Shown: piece after piece, positions 621 to 7,496 of the stretch
How positions within the stretch are numbered: the stretch's first letter is position 1
How the letters are laid out: each line of letters opens with the position of its first letter
Virus record (IMG/VR): IMGVR_UViG_3300032323_000716
Location: 1 to 64,000 of that record
Reading direction: 5' to 3' (one strand)
Length of the DNA: 64,000 nucleotides
Source: a virus
Program-made: the position numbers and the translations under genes
The notes under the pieces: generated by a model
Seen by the model: the letters and a program-made list of their open reading frames with translations, nothing else
What the model was told of the DNA's origin: nothing
Databases searched by the model: none

Positions 621-2117
621 ATGCGTTTAACAACTTTATCAGACAAAACATTACTCGTAGAACAACACCTAAATGCCTCTAGACTATTGCTTAGGGAAAG
701 TTGTGACGGATTAACACTAGACCAACGACGCATAGTCGAAGGCATATATTCAGAATTATCACCTTTAATTGAAGCCAGTTTAACTACTGATCAGATACAA
801 CAACTGTTTGGACAAGTTGAAAAGTCATCTACTGAAGCAGGTGGTAACAGAACACTGTTGGGCAAAGCCGTAGATGTACCTGGTAAAGTAGATGCTGCCA
901 TTAATAAGATTGGCAAGTATCTTCAAAATACAAAACCTGTGCAGGCTTTCGATCAAAAGTTTGATCAATTAAAGAATAAAATCAATACCAAGTTCCCGGA
1001 TAGCAAAATACTAGATGCCATTTCAGAAATGGGCATATGGGCCAAAGAGAATCCCGGAAAGACCGCAGCCATTATTGGTGTGCTGACAACTATCGCAGGT
1101 CTAGCAGGTGGTCCAGTTGGCGGTGCTATCGCTGGTCAAATACTTAGAGGCGCCACAGAATTACTCAAAGGTGAAAAACTTTCAACTGCTATAGGCAAAG
1201 GTATCAAGACTGCTGCCTACGGTGCTATGGCAGGATGGCTAGTAGATGGCATTGGAGATTGGTTAGAAGGACTTAGAGCAGATGTAGTGCCCTATGACAA
1301 GATGCCTGGATTGAAACAGATCAATGTGGGCTTGACCAAAAGCCTAGAAGCACCCGGTATGAGTTTTAAACAGACTGTACACAGTATCCTAGTTCCTGAA
1401 GATTCTGTAGTAGGATTCCAAGCCATAGTTGACAATGCTCGCGGTGGAGATGTCAACGCTTTCAACGATCTAATACAGTTCACAGAACGATTCAGCGCCA
1501 AAGATTATTTGTTACAAAAATCAGTTTCCGATGCGGCTTCACAGGCATTGGCACAGCAGAACGATAAATTTTTACAGGCTATGAAAACAGCCAATGACGT
1601 CATACGTGCTGCTGCACAAGGTGCTGTTGCTGGTAAACTATCTGCTGATCAAGTCAAAGTTGGCGGCAAGCCAATGTCTGACACTGCTGGTAAAAAAGAA
1701 AGTTATTACATACAGACCAAACCGTTATCCGAAGGTCAGGTCTATCTAGTGTTCAATCGTGTACAACAGTTAAACGAAGGTCCTTTAGATTATATCAAAA
1801 AGAAAGCAGCCAACCTAACCACAAAGGTCACTGCTGACAAATTAAATTCTGCTTGGCAAAAAGCAGGATCGCCTACAGATTCAAATGAACTTGCTGCGTT
1901 TTTAAACAAGCAGGGAGTTGACTCGGAACTGGTCAAACAGGTTTATGCTCAAATGAAATTGCCAGATCCTTCAGCAACTGCAAATACAGATCAAGAAACT
2001 CCTCAACAGAGCACAGCATTAAGTCTTGATCAAGTACAGGCTATGATAGCCAAACTGCCCACTGATCGCAAAGTTAGATTGGTAAATTACATGACTAAAC
2101 AACTTAAGGTGGCCTAA
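621..2117 (+). CDS. Hypothetical protein, candidate internal head/ejection protein with a glycine-zipper-like hydrophobic segment
   Basis: 498-aa ORF; hydrophobic GKTAAIIGVLTTIAGLAGGPVGGAIAG segment; several L-x-E sites (LIEA, LSEG, LNEG). Confidence 0.6.
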   Translation: MRLTTLSDKTLLVEQHLNASRLLLRESCDGLTLDQRRIVEGIYSELSPLIEASLTTDQIQQLFGQVEKSSTEAGGNRTLLGKAVDVPGKVDAAINKIGKYLQNTKPVQAFDQKFDQLKNKINTKFPDSKILDAISEMGIWAKENPGKTAAIIGVLTTIAGLAGGPVGGAIAGQILRGATELLKGEKLSTAIGKGIKTAAYGAMAGWLVDGIGDWLEGLRADVVPYDKMPGLKQINVGLTKSLEAPGMSFKQTVHSILVPEDSVVGFQAIVDNARGGDVNAFNDLIQFTERFSAKDYLLQKSVSDAASQALAQQNDKFLQAMKTANDVIRAAAQGAVAGKLSADQVKVGGKPMSDTAGKKESYYIQTKPLSEGQVYLVFNRVQQLNEGPLDYIKKKAANLTTKVTADKLNSAWQKAGSPTDSNELAAFLNKQGVDSELVKQVYAQMKLPDPSATANTDQETPQQSTALSLDQVQAMIAKLPTDRKVRLVNYMTKQLKVA

Positions 2118-3181
2118 TGAGATTAAACGAATTACTCACTGAATCACAGGTACAAGAAGGCCCACTACTGAACAAATTAGGCTCAACAGTGGGCAAGGCT
2201 GCGGGTACCGTGGCCAAGGGTGTTGGTGCAGTAGCCGGCGGCATTGCAGGCATAGGCAAAGCATTTAAAAAGGGCTATCAGGCCGGTAAGACCACTGTGG
2301 GCAGTGGCGGGGACAGCGACAGCGCAGAACCAGCAGCAGCAAACACAGGCAGTGCAGCATCAAGTACTAGCAGCGCACCTTCTGGCTCAAGCACTGCGGC
2401 TCCAGCAACAACATCTAAACCTGCAGCAACTACAACAACTCCTGCAGCACAATCTAAACCTGCTCAGGCAACATCAAAGCCAGCGGCTGCACCTGCCCAA
2501 AGCAGTGAACAGCCTGCAGCAAAAGCAGCCAATGATACGCAGTATGCACAGGCACAGAAAGCCATTGCTGCTTTACAGCCTGCAGATCAAAAAACAATAC
2601 TAACGACATTACAGGCAGATCCTAAAGTTAAATCTGCTATGGCCAAAGCAGCACAACCTCAACAGAAACAACCAGCGGCTGCACCTGCTGCTGAGCTAAC
2701 GGCTGCACCTGCAACTACAGCACCGGCAGCAACCACAACCGAACCTAACAAGCCTGTTAAGAAAGGCGGCCGCAAAAAAGCAGCAGGACCAAGTCAAGCA
2801 GAAATAGATGCTGACCGTGCTAGAATTATGGGACCAACATCGGATTCAGTTATTAGAACAGGTAAATCTATAGTTGAAAATATCAGTGAAGCAGGACTAA
2901 TGGCCAAGTTGGGATCTAAAGTTGGACAGGCTGCTCAAACAGTAGGTAACGTTGCTGGAAAAAATGTAGGTGCTATACAACAGGCCAAAGCAGATCCTGA
3001 GCATGCTAAAAATCTTGTCAAGGCATTTGCCACAGGTAATGCTTCAAAAGATCCTAATGATGCTCCGCCTATACAAGACAAAAGTGGCACAGTGCCTAAA
3101 CAGATCATTGATAAAATCAATCAACTGAATCTAGAACAACGTGCAGAACTGCACAAATTAATTACACAAAAAACTCTATGA
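2117..3181 (+). CDS. Hypothetical Ala/Thr/Pro/Gln-rich protein, candidate processed internal head protein
   Basis: 354 aa; ATG overlaps the upstream stop (TAATG); begins MRLNELLTE; duplicated module VQEGPLLNKLGSTVGKAA / ISEAGLMAKLGSKVGQAA. Confidence 0.65.
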   Translation: MRLNELLTESQVQEGPLLNKLGSTVGKAAGTVAKGVGAVAGGIAGIGKAFKKGYQAGKTTVGSGGDSDSAEPAAANTGSAASSTSSAPSGSSTAAPATTSKPAATTTTPAAQSKPAQATSKPAAAPAQSSEQPAAKAANDTQYAQAQKAIAALQPADQKTILTTLQADPKVKSAMAKAAQPQQKQPAAAPAAELTAAPATTAPAATTTEPNKPVKKGGRKKAAGPSQAEIDADRARIMGPTSDSVIRTGKSIVENISEAGLMAKLGSKVGQAAQTVGNVAGKNVGAIQQAKADPEHAKNLVKAFATGNASKDPNDAPPIQDKSGTVPKQIIDKINQLNLEQRAELHKLITQKTL

Positions 3182-3297
3182 AAGTCAACGAATTATTTGA
3201 ACAAGAAATAGATATCAATGCTTTGGCTGATGAGATAGTCAAAGCAGGTATGCAAGTATCTGAAATAGTCAAACAGTTGATAGCACCTGCTGATTAA
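3178..3297 (+). CDS. Small hypothetical protein (39 aa), not in the ORF track
   Basis: ATGA overlap with the upstream stop; MKVNELFEQEIDINALADEIVKAGMQVSEIVKQLIAPAD*; N-terminus resembles MRLNELLTE of the upstream gene. Confidence 0.55.
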   Translation: MKVNELFEQEIDINALADEIVKAGMQVSEIVKQLIAPAD

Positions 3298-3521
3298 AAG
3301 AACGGTAGTTTAGTTTTTTTAGTAGTTTCTAGATTTTCTTTAATGATCTCGCCTACGATCATTCGCTCATCATAACTTAACATCAGTGCTTCTTGGTAAC
3401 TCATACCACGCATGTACCAACAGATCTTAAGTAGATCTTTTTTGATGTCCCGTTCTTCTCTTTCTAACTGCTTTACGTATTCTTGGATCTCAACCAGAGA
3501 CTGAGTTAAGATCCTCTGTCG
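3294..3521 (-). CDS. -1 frameshift extension of the gp26-like gene (tail assembly chaperone GT/E'-like segment), not in the ORF track
   Basis: Open frame RQRILTQSLVEIQEYVKQLEREERDIKKDLLKICWYMRGMSYQEALMLSYDERMIVGEIIKENLETTKKTKLPFF*. It has no ATG until codon 37 and is entered by a -1 shift at A AAT TTT TTC (3530-3521). Confidence 0.65.
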   Translation of the reverse strand, partial: RQRILTQSLVEIQEYVKQLEREERDIKKDLLKICWYMRGMSYQEALMLSYDERMIVGEIIKENLETTKKTKLPFF

Positions 3522-4384
3522 AAAAAATTTGTTTGATCCATTTCAAGATTCACAGACCATTCGTGACTGCAATTGGTGCATTTGGCCTGTTGTGCCTGTA
3601 ACTTCATAGATTCTTTCATACGATCTACATGATCTTTGATTGTATTAAAAATTTCACTGGTAGTGTTTTCAATAAAGTTTTTAATGATAGCAGCATCTGT
3701 AACAGTGCCTTCGGGAGTAGTGATGCTTTCTATGCAACCGCAGATAACATCTACAGTCATTTCTGTTAGTTTAAGAAAACTAGCACCAAATTTCTCTAGT
3801 TTAAGTTCGTCGCTCATTGATTCGTCATTGACAATAGCAAAGATTTTCTGTTGTTCTAAAGTTTTAATTGCAGCCTTAGAAACTTCTCTGTACGAATAAG
3901 GACGGATCTTAATAACCAATGGATCTATGTGTAAAGTATCTTCGTAGACAAATTGACTAACAGAATCTAGATAACCTAGCAGACTCATAACCAAATCGTT
4001 AATAGTTTGACAGTTTGGACAGGTAGCAGTTACATCCATGTTTTCGCCATAGGTAGCAATACGTATGGCAACTAAACAAGCATCAAGATCCAAACTAGGC
4101 ATGTTCCAAGGATCTTTGATAGCAGGTATACAACTCTTAATCACACTTACAGTGGCCTGTCCGTTCATCAGTGCGTCCGGAGTTTTAAACATAAGTTCAT
4201 CTTTAGCAGTCATGGCAAATACAGGGTATTCGTCTATGGCGCTTTTGTCCAAAGAACCTTCTGGATAGAATCGTCCTTGGCTGGGCAATCTAATAAAAAT
4301 CTTAGGTTGCCTAAAATAATTTGCCAACGGATTACCTGCAGTTTTGACCGCGGTAGCGATTGGATTCACCTGTTGTTCTGACAT
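3506..4384 (-). CDS. T4 gp26-like baseplate hub assembly protein / tail assembly chaperone
   Basis: 292 aa; LPSQGRFY, MTAKDEL, DLDACLVAIRIATYG, two CxxC motifs (CPNC, CTNC), C-terminal NFF; GGAG SD and TATAAATA upstream on the minus strand. Confidence 0.7.
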   Translation of the reverse strand: MSEQQVNPIATAVKTAGNPLANYFRQPKIFIRLPSQGRFYPEGSLDKSAIDEYPVFAMTAKDELMFKTPDALMNGQATVSVIKSCIPAIKDPWNMPSLDLDACLVAIRIATYGENMDVTATCPNCQTINDLVMSLLGYLDSVSQFVYEDTLHIDPLVIKIRPYSYREVSKAAIKTLEQQKIFAIVNDESMSDELKLEKFGASFLKLTEMTVDVICGCIESITTPEGTVTDAAIIKNFIENTTSEIFNTIKDHVDRMKESMKLQAQQAKCTNCSHEWSVNLEMDQTNFFDRGS

Positions 4385-4395
4385 TTTTTTCTCCG

Positions 4396-4425
4396 ATAAA
4401 TATTATATCTACGTAGATATTTATA
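4396..4425. promoter_or_regulatory. Face-to-face late promoter boxes flanking a 16-bp palindrome
   Basis: ATAAATA on + (4396-4402), TATAAATA on - (4425-4418), with ATATCTACGTAGATAT (4405-4420) between them. Confidence 0.6.
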
Positions 4426-4451: not shown

Positions 4452-7400
4452 ATGGCAGAAGTCACCGGAGACCTAGGCGGTCAACCAATTCAATTAAACA
4501 ATGCGGCTACAGAAGCCACACTTAGAGAGATGCTTGCTGCGATCTTAAAACAAGGTGTGACTGGAAAAGGCGGCAAAGCCCAAAAAGAGCTTGAGAAAAA
4601 ACTAGCGGAACTGGCCAAACAAACTGAAGAACTTACAGATGAGCAAAAAGAATCAATAAAACAGTCTCGAGAGGCACAGAAGAAAAAAGACGAAGAGATT
4701 AAACAGGCTGCTGAATTAGGCAAAGCCATGAATGGGTTACTATCTTCTGTAACTAGCGTGATTACTGGTATGACTAATATGATTAGCACTATCAGTAGAT
4801 TGGACAATTCTATGACAGCGGCCGCACAAAGTATGAGTGCTATACCGTTAGTTGGCGGCGCAATGGCCACAGTCTTTGGAGCAGTTACAGGAGCAGCCGA
4901 AAGAACATACAAAGCATTTCAACAAGCAGCCAGTGTAGGTGCAAACTTTGGTGGCAGCATCACAGACATGGTTAATGCTGCATCAGGTGCAGGGTTAACC
5001 TTTGATCAATTTTCTGGCATAGTTTCTAAGACCAGTGCCGATCTAGCACTGTTAGGCGGCAGTACTGCTGAAGGTGCTAAACGTTTATCTGAACTTGGCA
5101 AAGGAATAAGAAATTCTAAACTAGGAGACGACCTTGCTAGATTAGGTTACAGCACAGAACAGATCAACGAAAGCATGGCCAAGTACAGCGGTGTGTTGGC
5201 CAAGACTGGTGCTCTTTCTGGAATGAATAACAGTCAACTGATATCTCAAACTGGGCAATACCTACAGAATTTAGATGCAGTATCTAAACTTACTGGTTTA
5301 AACAAAAAAGATCTAGAAGATCAACGTGCTCAAATGATGCGTGACTCGCAGTTGCGTAACACTTTGAGAAAGATGGATGCTACTAGCCAAGAAGAATTAA
5401 TGGCTTTCTTGCAGACATTACCACCTGAATTACAAGAAGGTGCTAAAGAAGTTATTGCTACAGGTACTGCAACTAGCGAAGCAGGTCGAGCAGCATTGCA
5501 ATATCTACCAGACTCTGGTCGTGCATTTATGCATATGAATGCACAGATTAGACAGACAGGAACGTTTACCAAAGAAAACAACAAAGCGTTAAATGCGTCT
5601 ATACAGGCTGAAGCCAAACGTGTCGCTGACAGCCCATTGGCTGAAAACATGAGATTGTATGGAGACAAGTATGCACAAGGTGTGTTTACAGCCATAGATG
5701 ACGTAGCAGCCAGAGAAAAGTCCATTGGACAAGTTCAAGCAGAAACTGCTAAAGCCGCAGAAGAAAGAAGAAAAAAAGAAAAAGCAGAAATAGATGCTGC
5801 TAATTTAAAACGTTTCCAAGAACAAATAGCAGAAGTCAGCAACACATTTACAAAGTTTCTTGCTAACAGTTCATTATTAGCAGATTTTCAAAAGATATTC
5901 ACTACTACTATAGGATTTGTAGAAACTTTTATATTACCTACATTTAAGTTTCTAGCAGATAATTCGGGCATGTTAGCATTAGTAATGGCACCATTAGTTG
6001 GATTAATTGCTGCTGTTAATGTAGCATGGGGCATTTTAACACTTGCAACTAAAGCACAAATTATTTCTAGCGCATTAGCATCTGGGGCTTTAGGAAAATT
6101 AGCCATAGGAGCATTTGCTGCTTCGTTACCTTTCTTAAAAATTGCACTTCCGGTAATAGCATTAATTGCCGCATTTAAAATGTTGTACAATGCAGGATTT
6201 ACTGTAGGAGATGTATTCGAAGCCATTGGCGATAATATGAAACGTTTGATGATTACGTTGGCTGATGGATTTTTAGGGTTACTGGATAAACTTACATTTG
6301 GTGATGCTAATAAGAAAGTTAAACAGGCACAAAAGGCTCTTGAATTAGAAAGACAAGAACTTGACGAAAAAGAAAAAGCCAGAGATCAACGTAGAAAAGA
6401 CAAACGTGAAGAGCGTGGTATTAAAGAAGAAGAAAATAAATTATCTAAAGAAGCCATTGATCTACAGAAAAAAGAAAACGATGCTAAAAAAGAAGGTCAA
6501 GGAAAAGAAACAACACCTGGCACTGCTTATGATCTAAGTTCGCCTCAGAAGATGTTTGAAAGTGCAATGCGCAGACAACAAGGCGCAGCAGCACAACCAG
6601 GAACAACTGTGTCTCCTGGACTTGGCGGCATGGCAGCCAAATTTGAATCGGGATCTGCTGGCTCTTCGGCAATTGGTTGGGATACCACAGGCGGAACTAG
6701 TTATGGCAAGTATCAGATAGCAGCCAAGACAGGAACCATGAATAGATTCATGGAACACTTAAAAACAAGTAATCCGGAAGCCTACGCAAGATTATCTAAA
6801 GCAGGTCCTGCCGATGCAGGCAAAGACGGCGCATTTGCTCAAGAATGGAAAAAACTTGCCGGCGAAGGCAAACTCCAAACATCAGAACACGAGTTTATTA
6901 AGAAAACACACTTTGATGTTGGAATGAAGGGAACTGGTCAAAGTCTGCAAGACATGATTGGTAAGAGCAAAGCCTTACAAGAAGTTATGTGGTCCACATC
7001 TGTCCAACATGGCGGTAAAGGGGCTAGTAACATATTCAACAAAGTCTTCAAAGAAGGCATGAGCGAAAAAGAACTTATTGATGCAGTGTATGCCGAAAGA
7101 TCTAAGAAATTTGGTTCTAGCACACAACAAGTTCAAGCCAGTGTGATGAGTAGATTCGCACAAGAAAGAGAATTGGCACAAGGAATGGTTGGACAACCAG
7201 GAACTGCAACAGCATCAGCACAATCGCCTGCTACTGCCGCTACACCTTCTTCAACTGCTGCCCAAACTGCTGTGGCTCAAGCGCCGGCAGCACCTGCCAA
7301 ACCATCAACTACACCTGCCCAAACTGCACAAGCAGCAACACAAACTCAAGAAAGTCCCGCAACATTGCTTTCTAGTTTAAATAATAAGATGGATGTTCTA

Positions 7401-7496
7401 ATTGCACTTAACCGACGTGCTAATGACACGAGAGATAGACAATTGAGTGCTGCAAGAACTACTGCCGGTGAAGTTACTGCTTATGCTGCGGCATAA
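4452..7496 (+). CDS. Tape measure protein with a C-terminal lysozyme-like peptidoglycan hydrolase domain
   Basis: 1014 aa; long Ala/Gly-rich helical region, hydrophobic TM-like stretch (~aa 505-580), charged coiled coil, then FESG...GGTSYGKYQI...WSTSVQHG lysozyme-like motif; lies next to the chaperone-like gene. Confidence 0.75.
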   Translation: MAEVTGDLGGQPIQLNNAATEATLREMLAAILKQGVTGKGGKAQKELEKKLAELAKQTEELTDEQKESIKQSREAQKKKDEEIKQAAELGKAMNGLLSSVTSVITGMTNMISTISRLDNSMTAAAQSMSAIPLVGGAMATVFGAVTGAAERTYKAFQQAASVGANFGGSITDMVNAASGAGLTFDQFSGIVSKTSADLALLGGSTAEGAKRLSELGKGIRNSKLGDDLARLGYSTEQINESMAKYSGVLAKTGALSGMNNSQLISQTGQYLQNLDAVSKLTGLNKKDLEDQRAQMMRDSQLRNTLRKMDATSQEELMAFLQTLPPELQEGAKEVIATGTATSEAGRAALQYLPDSGRAFMHMNAQIRQTGTFTKENNKALNASIQAEAKRVADSPLAENMRLYGDKYAQGVFTAIDDVAAREKSIGQVQAETAKAAEERRKKEKAEIDAANLKRFQEQIAEVSNTFTKFLANSSLLADFQKIFTTTIGFVETFILPTFKFLADNSGMLALVMAPLVGLIAAVNVAWGILTLATKAQIISSALASGALGKLAIGAFAASLPFLKIALPVIALIAAFKMLYNAGFTVGDVFEAIGDNMKRLMITLADGFLGLLDKLTFGDANKKVKQAQKALELERQELDEKEKARDQRRKDKREERGIKEEENKLSKEAIDLQKKENDAKKEGQGKETTPGTAYDLSSPQKMFESAMRRQQGAAAQPGTTVSPGLGGMAAKFESGSAGSSAIGWDTTGGTSYGKYQIAAKTGTMNRFMEHLKTSNPEAYARLSKAGPADAGKDGAFAQEWKKLAGEGKLQTSEHEFIKKTHFDVGMKGTGQSLQDMIGKSKALQEVMWSTSVQHGGKGASNIFNKVFKEGMSEKELIDAVYAERSKKFGSSTQQVQASVMSRFAQERELAQGMVGQPGTATASAQSPATAATPSSTAAQTAVAQAPAAPAKPSTTPAQTAQAATQTQESPATLLSSLNNKMDVLIALNRRANDTRDRQLSAARTTAGEVTAYAAA

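Follow-up and report, generated by a model that had tools for sequence, protein, structure and literature searches.

The sequence analysed here (the window) comprises positions 1-64,000 of IMG/VR record IMGVR_UViG_3300032323_000716, which stems from an uncultured giant phage; the full record has 115 kb and is estimated to be only 33% complete. Close to its left end the window carries, on the minus strand, an open reading frame of 292 codons of the gp26/gp51 type, which is overlapped at its 3′ end by a second open frame and has a divergently oriented neighbour encoding a protein of 1014 aa. The features of the locus are:

3294..3521, minus strand: open frame in the -1 register (75 codons at 3521-3297 and the stop TAA at 3296-3294), predicted C-terminal module of a 363-aa form
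3485..3514, minus strand: candidate stimulatory RNA hairpin with a 10-bp stem and a 10-nt loop (5′ arm 3514-3505, 3′ arm 3494-3485)
3506..4384, minus strand: zero-frame open reading frame of the 292-aa short form, PF12322 gp26/gp51-type, from the reading frame and its translation
3515..3520, minus strand: six-base spacer between heptamer and hairpin, from sequence and folding
3521..3527, minus strand: slippery heptamer U_UUU_UUC in the register X_XXY_YYZ over the codons for Phe287 and Phe288, from sequence and alignment
4418..4425, minus strand: motif TATAAATA, 34 nt upstream of the ATG at 4384
4452..7496, plus strand: divergent gene for the 1014-aa protein, candidate tape measure, from a PF21277 match (2e-32) and sequence features

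The motif TATAAATA resembles the T4-type late promoter and is treated as a candidate.

The 292-aa protein matches Pfam PF12322 (T4_baseplate) over residues 57-281 with an E-value of 7.3e-17 and 62.2 bits (cut-off 24.5), and a search of the profile across the genome gave 61.8 bits for the same product; phrog_150 is matched with 2.2e-20. These profiles place the body shared by both predicted forms in PF12322 together with gp26 and gp51 of T4, which a T4 review counts among the hub assembly chaperones (Leiman et al. 2010, PMC3004832, Table 2). Two CxxC pairs (C122/C125 and C269/C272) are nearly invariant in an alignment of 71 sequences, and the two residues Phe287-Phe288 are invariant. AlphaFold2 modelled the 292-aa form with a pLDDT of 92.4 and a pTM of 0.86, and the named fold matches in BFVD are mostly baseplate hub or hub-assembly proteins.

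The reading frame ends in ACA AAT TTT TTC GAC AGA GGA TCT TAA, with the zero-frame stop four codons past the in-register T_TTT_TTC (3527-3521). In the -1 register the sequence is open from stop to stop between 3542 and 3294 (82 codons), of which five precede the T run and 75 follow the Phe-Phe codons. A slip of one base back would thus join 288 residues of the body to 75 residues of the extension, giving a protein of 363 aa with the junction ..TNFF|RQ.. in addition to the 292-aa product. A hidden -1 frameshift at this place had been proposed in the initial annotation; the coordinates and lengths of both frames, the position of the first possible start in the extension (codon 37) and the two products of 292 and about 363 aa with an ..NFFR junction were all reproduced by translation. 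The extension is predicted by AlphaFold2 to form a three-helix domain (pLDDT 92.2). No Pfam, PHROG or NCBIfam model recognises the 75-aa peptide of this phage, and the CBB copy of the extension defines its own family, phrog_18291.

For comparison, 25 distinct related loci were aligned, which belong to the phages Phosso, Atu_ph07, PA5oct and CBB and to IMG/VR contigs and have protein identities of about 30-99%. T_TTT_TTC is invariant in all 26 sequences. The overlapping heptamer A_AAT_TTT, from which a slip would yield the identical protein and which had been named as a second site, is missing from PA5oct, L025, L026, L027, Phosso and Atu_ph07; of the two, only T_TTT_TTC is conserved. The same heptamer is found at the same Phe-Phe position in 36 of 37 loci of a separate T4-like clade, and also in LG08 and LPCS28. 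In a single sequence the heptamer is unremarkable, with 28 copies of TTTTTTC in the AT-rich 64-kb window and 19 expected, so that its significance comes from the comparison. Phe codons elsewhere in these genes are TTT in 215 cases and TTC in 76 (26%); the X_XXY_YYZ arrangement has been kept against synonymous drift at 26 of 26 and 36 of 37 loci, including a minority codon.

In all relatives aligned the extension is open over 70-77 codons, and the -1 frame often closes one to three codons 5′ of the heptamer. It is conserved as a protein from the first residue after Phe-Phe, with R1, W35, R38, N63 and P73 invariant, and the differences between loci fall mostly on the third codon position (831/461/1590 for positions 1/2/3). 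The abundance of TTTTTTC in an AT-rich sequence is what a chance T run next to a chance open frame, with no second product, would lead one to expect. This reading has practically no probability left: frame, length, protein and heptamer are conserved in both clades, at more than 40 distinct loci altogether, the substitutions follow a coding-type pattern and the predicted fold is confident, and the comparative data effectively refute it.

The downstream frame might also be a separate small gene, unfused to the gp26-like body and translated by reinitiation, by coupling or from a non-canonical start. Such an arrangement is visible in some relatives. In Phosso, Atu_ph07 and L027 (3 of the 25 loci) an ATG stands at codon 2 of the extension and overlaps the stop as ATGA, so that coupled initiation is possible there. 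In Cygsa01 the heptamer is lost and the module is a TAATG-coupled frame of its own, annotated as hub assembly catalyst, from which it follows that the module can also work unfused. GenBank records, furthermore, give a separate hypothetical protein or nothing at this place. A separate gene is nevertheless very unlikely for the locus in the window. Its extension has no ATG, GTG or TTG before codon 37, although conservation covers residues 1-36, and at the junction one sees no Shine-Dalgarno sequence placed ahead of a start. The relatives share no conserved start codon, their first ATG, GTG or TTG being scattered from codon -19 to codon +60, and PA5oct has none. A separate gene would also leave the invariant T_TTT_TTC, minority codon included, unexplained in two deeply diverged clades, and T4 gp51 shows that the fused architecture occurs in nature. 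An in-frame fused form was not found among longer proteins with the extension by a word-index search, nor was a C-terminal fusion found in the 150 best phmmer representatives of 1298 matches (E<=0.001), both being weak negatives; 127 of these 150 end with Phe-Phe followed by zero to six residues.

The sequence 3′ of the heptamer can fold into the hairpin at 3485..3514, whose 5′ arm contains the zero-frame stop TAA (3508-3506). Its minimum free energy is -16.5 kcal/mol (z -2.6), and 2 of 200 shuffled sequences fold equally well. RNAalifold predicted no consensus structure on the 26 loci or on the 16 closer ones, and for this reason pairing was counted for a stem specified by hand (columns 20-29/46-55). 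In the 16 closer loci 85% of the cells pair, compared to 29-54% in controls with slid positions, and covariation in the same stem is 0.323 against at most 0.168; across all 26 loci pairing amounts to 74% against 33-55%. Hairpins start 3-6 nt past the heptamer, and distant relatives use other stems than the one at 3485..3514. The negative RNAalifold result notwithstanding, the 10-bp hairpin of this phage lies at 6 nt, within the 5-9 nt at which a downstream structure was looked for. No Rfam family matched in the frameshift region.

The same two proteins would arise by transcriptional slippage, if RNA polymerase inserted an extra U on the T6 run so that a few mRNAs encode the long form. Programmed transcriptional realignment occurs in bacteria and in mobile elements, and one U inserted into the homopolymeric run yields exactly ..NFFR... 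Such sites, on the other hand, usually have about nine or more T, and the run has six at every locus and never more. The codon register and the C behind the run do not vary, as a ribosomal X_XXY_YYZ site demands, and the covarying hairpin lies at a spacing typical of ribosomal frameshift stimulators. We consider slippage of the polymerase very unlikely, slightly more so than a separate gene.

Ribosomal frameshifting is the reading to which these observations point. It is highly probable, judged from comparative sequence data, that one gene encodes two N-coterminal proteins of 292 and 363 aa by programmed -1 ribosomal frameshifting. The hairpin six bases 3′ of the heptamer would slow ribosomes on U_UUU_UUC at Phe287-Phe288. 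The majority of them would stay in frame and terminate four codons further on, releasing the short form, and a minority would slip one base back, with both Phe-tRNAs re-pairing on UUU. For the slipped ribosomes the next residue would be Arg, followed by the rest of the 75-residue three-helix module of the long form, which is presumably the minor species. The two forms may serve together as chaperones, non-structural or of low copy number, in the assembly of the central hub with the tape measure protein.

In the T4-like clade the -1 peptide can be given a name. The -1 peptides of LPCS28 and LG08 match phrog_634, the gp51 C-terminal family, with 1e-10 and 2e-7, and the Cygsa01 peptide does so with 9e-12. 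T4 gp51 and gp26 themselves match PF12322 with 3.9e-52 and 8e-65 and are paralogous (BLASTP 2e-6). When aligned with the fusion products of LPCS28 and LG08, gp51 reads in frame over their slip junction; gp26 stops three residues past Phe-Phe and has the C-terminal sequence CPEC...EFFELL. Matches and alignment together identify the -1 peptide of the T4-like clade as the C-terminal module of gp51. PF12322 is present in two copies in T4 and in one copy each in LPCS28, LG08, Cygsa01 and CBB. Phages with a single copy would thus obtain both forms from one gene by the slip and T4 from two paralogues, and the phage studied here probably belongs to the former. The suggestion that gp26-like genes of the T4 superfamily and the short frame after them constitute one frameshifted system is accordingly backed by the heptamer and the gp51 module of this clade.

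For the phage in the window the relation of the two forms to gp26 (short, 208 aa) and gp51 (long, 249 aa) appears likely from architecture. Shared with T4 are the PF12322 body, the two CxxC pairs and the C-terminal Phe-Phe, a short form that stops one to four residues past it, a long form that adds a helical module of about 50-75 aa, and the location in a tail/baseplate late-gene neighbourhood. The T4 forms differ in being separate, divergently transcribed paralogues instead of one gene with a slip; at the gp26 site there is no slippery heptamer, and a stop ends the -1 frame there after four codons. Furthermore, the body studied here has 292 instead of 208 aa, and the gp51 module is not recognisable in its extension. 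The extensions of this phage, Phosso, PA5oct and CBB had no match to phrog_634 at E<=1. An hhalign comparison of the 25 jumbo-clade extensions with 18 T4-like ones was weak (P 0.0075, probability 5%; common motif S..E...L/M...ER), and T4 gp51 alone also gave a probability of 5%. The extension of the jumbo clade is consequently equated with the gp51 module by position and not by demonstrated homology.

The small phrog_634 frames of cyanophage-like and T4-like genomes, labelled gp51 or baseplate hub assembly catalyst, resemble the extension in lying in the -1 frame directly after the Phe-Phe of PF12322 and in being helical and of similar size. Databases describe them as free-standing genes starting at internal or overlapping ATGs; the loci of this type that were examined mostly have the heptamer and no conserved start. 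The extension described here falls into another sequence cluster, to which phrog_18291 of CBB belongs.

Xu, Hendrix and Duda reportedly described in 2004 (Mol Cell) that a -1 frameshift is conserved in the tail assembly chaperone genes of long-tailed phages. T4 is often quoted as the exception. The gene in the window shares with lambda gpG/gpGT and P2 gpE/gpE+E′ a -1 slip shortly before the shorter frame ends and two N-coterminal products, both predicted here. The P2 heptamer (NC_001895), T_TTT_TTG, is U-rich as well; the lambda and P2 proteins, like those of the PF12322 family, are tail-assembly factors, and our gene adjoins a tape-measure-like gene. In contrast to those systems, the body common to both forms has two to three times the size and carries a zinc-ribbon-like Cys4 site, and the gene and that of the putative tape measure are divergent, whereas G/GT and E/E′ lie between the tube and tape-measure genes in one operon. 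A proposed resemblance of the extension to P2 gpE′ was rejected (hhalign probability 0.3%). No tail-assembly-chaperone family appeared in the Pfam or NCBIfam searches, no sequence match was obtained in the PDB, and chaperones were absent from the PDB and BFVD fold matches. Membership in a known chaperone family is not supported by these searches. Taken together, the conservation of heptamer, -1 peptide and hairpin and the link to T4 argue that a logic like that of lambda G/GT applies, in a protein family that looks unrelated.

The divergent 1014-aa protein looks like a tape measure, as had been assumed, and is kept as a candidate. Its N-terminus is charged and probably helical; the protein further contains Ala/Gly-rich stretches, hydrophobic stretches of membrane-like character and, at residues 724-906, a VgrG3-like peptidoglycan-hydrolase domain (PF21277, 2e-32), which is also present in a Bacillus phage AR9 protein with the annotation tape measure. 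In PA5oct and CBB, virion structural proteins are encoded at the syntenic neighbouring position; CBB_251, the large neighbour, is present in the virion mass-spectrometry table of CBB with 29 peptides. CBB_250 is absent from that table, and the RefSeq label 'structural protein' of the CBB orthologue of the gp26-like gene is accordingly not taken to mean presence in virions. A complex prediction that combined the gp26-like alignment with the first 700 residues of the tape-measure-like protein scored 0.00 (mark 0.32), which speaks neither for nor against binding. The PF12322 gene is followed by a convergent head-protein-like operon. No PF06841 tube gene was found in the 115-kb record, which is 33% complete; in LG08 the order is tube, PF12322 gene, small frames and large frame.

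In the full-text literature searches and in the GenBank records looked at, no description of the slip was found. In those GenBank records the extension appears as a stray hypothetical protein or a truncated 'gp51', or is left out altogether, and annotation could be corrected on a large scale. The deeply conserved U_UUU_UUC with its hairpin would be an addition to the few -1 recoding sites of bacteria and phages. Several relatives have hosts in culture, namely Pseudomonas for PA5oct, Pectobacterium for CBB, E. coli for 121Q-like phages and Agrobacterium for Atu_ph07.

Few T4 tail-assembly proteins still lack a mechanism, and gp26 and gp51 are two of them. Should they be the counterparts of the short and the long product that hundreds of other phage lineages make from one frameshifted gene, the result is a testable model with two N-coterminal chaperone forms in a set ratio, by which hub assembly in T4 would be linked to the logic of G/GT in lambda and of its P2 counterpart. 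Tentatively, and with the odds somewhat against it, the gp26/gp51 family might be the tail assembly chaperone that has long been missing from T4-like and Rak2-like giant myoviruses, the U_UUU_UUC slip being ancestral and T4 derived by a duplication that left gene 26 for the short and gene 51 for the long form. If this is true, the old genetic finding of a catalytic gp51 would be explained by gp51 being the minor long form, and the G/GT principle of a short and a long product would be valid for essentially all long-tailed phages.

The features of the window (uncultured phage, IMG/VR record) around the predicted slip site are:

3506-4384, minus strand: ORF of the short form of the gp26-like protein, 292 residues, ending ...ACA AAT TTT TTC GAC AGA GGA TCT TAA
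4452-7496, plus strand: tape-measure-like protein of 1014 aa, so called from its composition and a VgrG3-like domain

The −1 frame is open from stop to stop between 3542 and 3294; 5 codons precede the T run and 75 (the extension) follow the Phe-Phe pair. In this frame ATG, GTG or TTG first appears at extension codon 37. A slip on T_TTT_TTC (3527-3521) would join residues 1-288 to 75 more, giving a predicted long form of 363 residues whose junction reads ..TNFF followed by RQ... Frame, coordinates and lengths (292 and about 363 aa) given in the initial annotation all proved correct on re-reading the window. TTTTTTC is present in 28 copies in the AT-rich window versus 19 expected and is unremarkable by itself; the case for frameshifting is based on comparison across genomes. 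The 621-3297 operon closes with a small plus-strand ORF (3181-3297) that runs towards the extension and shares a few bases at its end with the extension stop (3294-3296, minus strand). Neither an intergenic gap nor a terminator was found between this operon and the extension.

Four isolates (Phosso, Atu_ph07, PA5oct, CBB) and 26 IMG/VR loci were compared. All loci reaching the gene end encode x-Phe-Phe plus 1-4 codons with TTTTTTC in identical register, and the seven heptamer columns are invariant in an ungapped alignment of 26 sequences. Two overlapping heptamers had been proposed. T_TTT_TTC is conserved together with the open −1 frame, but A_AAT_TTT is missing in PA5oct, Phosso, Atu_ph07 and the IMG/VR loci L025, L026 and L027. 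Since a slip on either would yield the identical protein, the loss of A_AAT_TTT in these six relatives marks T_TTT_TTC as the constrained site. TTC encodes the second of the two Phe residues without exception, while Phe codons elsewhere in these genes are TTT in 215 and TTC in 76 cases. In a wider search of 1.84 billion proteins (1298 matches, E ≤ 0.001), 127 of the 150 best representatives carry Phe-Phe plus 0-6 residues at the C-terminus, so the arrangement belongs to a very large family.

All loci have an open −1 frame of 70-77 codons, which is frequently closed 1-3 codons upstream of the heptamer. The extension peptide is conserved from its first residue, with invariant Arg1, Trp35, Arg38, Asn63 and Pro73, and is predicted to form a three-helix domain (pLDDT 92). 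Pairwise differences fall mostly on the third position of the −1 frame (1590 versus 831 and 461). These comparative data exclude a chance open frame next to a T run, which we regard as practically out of the question. Separate translation of the extension as a small gene is possible in the three loci that show an ATGA overlap and has clearly evolved in Pseudomonas phage Cygsa01, but it leaves the invariant heptamer and the absent start codons unexplained. The position of the first potential start codon varies between −19 and +60 codons relative to the junction, and in PA5oct there is no such codon; separate initiation thus cannot account for the conserved first half of the extension and is an improbable explanation. 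At its C-terminus (3297-3311, minus strand) the extension carries a conserved Gly/Lys-Leu-Pro-Phe-Phe, an echo of the terminal Phe-Phe of the short-form body; Phe-Phe would then stand at the C-terminus of both forms, possibly as a docking motif that they share.

Six bases past the heptamer, a 10-bp stem (3514-3505/3494-3485) with a 10-nt loop is predicted (−16.5 kcal/mol, z −2.6), and the zero-frame stop codon sits within its 5′ arm. In 16 closer loci the equivalent stem (columns 20-29/46-55 of the ungapped alignment) is paired in 85% of cells versus 29-54% for slid partners, with a covariation of 0.323 versus ≤0.168. Pair 23-52 is never broken: nine loci have A-U, six G-C and one G-U. Over all 26 loci pairing amounts to 74% versus 33-55% with slid partners. 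RNAalifold returned no consensus structure for the aligned loci, distant relatives fold other stems at the same place, and no Rfam family matched the slip region. Support for the hairpin is moderate. The identical protein would arise from transcriptional slippage at the T run, but this is very improbable: the run never deviates from six T, the C after it is fixed, and the hairpin has the spacing of ribosomal frameshift sites. In the T4-like clade (loci L038-L071) a purine-rich AGGA/GGAGG-like element lies about 9-12 nt 5′ of TTTTTTC within Glu/Lys-Gly codons, which by analogy to dnaX may stimulate frameshifting in the manner of a Shine-Dalgarno sequence. The jumbo clade, including the window, is without this element and has the downstream hairpin in its place.

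The gp26-like protein matches PF12322 (T4_baseplate, 7.3e-17) and phrog_150 (baseplate hub, 2.2e-20). By tblastn the window, whose source record comprises 115,830 bp (estimated 33% complete), groups with giant Rak2-, PA5oct- and Atu_ph07-like myoviruses at about 30-35% identity. Four Cys residues (two CxxC pairs) are nearly invariant among 71 relatives, and Phe287-Phe288 is invariant. AlphaFold2 gave a confident model of the protein (pLDDT 92.4); most of the named proteins among the viral structure predictions matching it are baseplate hub or hub-assembly proteins, from many myovirus lineages. An exact TATAAATA at 4418-4425 (minus strand), 34 nt 5′ of the start codon of this gene, is a candidate T4-type late promoter and would agree with late, tail-gene timing.

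As in lambda G/GT and P2 E/E+E′, a −1 slip on a U-rich heptamer (T_TTT_TTG in P2) close to where the short ORF ends would give two N-coterminal forms of a predicted tail-assembly factor, and the gene adjoins a tape-measure-like gene. Unlike in these systems, it is transcribed away from the putative tape measure and not located between tube and tape-measure genes. This neighbour has a charged, probably helical N-terminus, long Ala/Gly-rich and membrane-like stretches, and a VgrG3-like peptidoglycan-hydrolase domain (residues 724-906; PF21277, 2e-32). By tblastn this domain alone was found in other phages, among them Bacillus phage AR9, where it lies in the annotated tape measure, and Erwinia and Dickeya jumbo phages, where it lies in 'VgrG-like' proteins; the syntenic counterparts of the neighbour in PA5oct and CBB are virion proteins. 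The initial annotation had assigned the gene to the G/GT-type tail assembly chaperones. The slip logic indeed matches lambda and P2, but membership in a known chaperone family found no backing: the gp26-like protein had no sequence match to such families in Pfam, NCBIfam or PDB, and chaperones were absent among the fold matches, a test effectively limited to the central helical hairpin. Likewise, the suggested resemblance of the extension to P2 E′ disappeared on comparison. By analogy, the system probably works like G/GT, homology being a separate matter.

GenBank annotation at this locus is erratic. The extension is either missing from the records or entered as a short 'gp51' or an unrelated hypothetical protein, and features under the extension match include 'prohead core scaffolding protein and protease' (CRJP21) and 'RIP and coiled-coil domain-containing 2' (phAPEC6). 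The PF12322 gene of phage WPEC5 is labelled 'portal protein'. No report of the slip was found in the full-text literature, a search that did not cover subscription journals, so an older report is possible.

In T4, gp26 and gp51 are listed as hub assembly chaperones in a review (PMC3004832, Table 2). They are paralogous (BLASTP 2e-6). PF12322 covers residues 1-201 of gp51 (3.9e-52), phrog_150 also matches gp51 (2.6e-84), and its C-terminal hundred residues hit phrog_634, 'baseplate hub assembly catalyst'. At the end of T4 gp26, Phe-Phe is followed by 3 residues and there is no heptamer; the −1 frame is shut after 4 codons, and gene 25 comes next. T4 has two PF12322 genes, while LPCS28, LG08, Cygsa01 and CBB have one apiece, as does the incomplete record of the window. 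The proposal that a gp26-like gene and the downstream short ORF form one system in the T4 superfamily is borne out by LG08 and LPCS28, whose single PF12322 gene has TTTTTTC at its Phe-Phe end and whose −1 peptides match phrog_634 (2e-7 and 1e-10, respectively). Of 37 additional T4-like loci from metagenomes, 36 show the same arrangement. The jumbo-clade extension does not match phrog_634, and hhalign of the two clades' extension profiles gave P 0.0075 and a probability of 5% with a sensible shared motif aligned. As no gp51 module is recognisable in the jumbo clade, equivalence of the window's long form to gp51 rests on the same family, site, heptamer and kind of helical add-on. In an alignment with the conceptual LPCS28 and LG08 long forms, T4 gp51 runs in frame across the slip junction and through the module, whereas gp26 terminates 3 residues beyond it; the two genes of T4 therefore correspond to the one gene plus slip of the single-copy phages. 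In Cygsa01 (1209-1382) the heptamer is gone, the gene ends ..SIFT and the gp51-like module is a free, TAATG-coupled ORF, which is a third solution besides frameshifting in most phages and gene duplication in T4.
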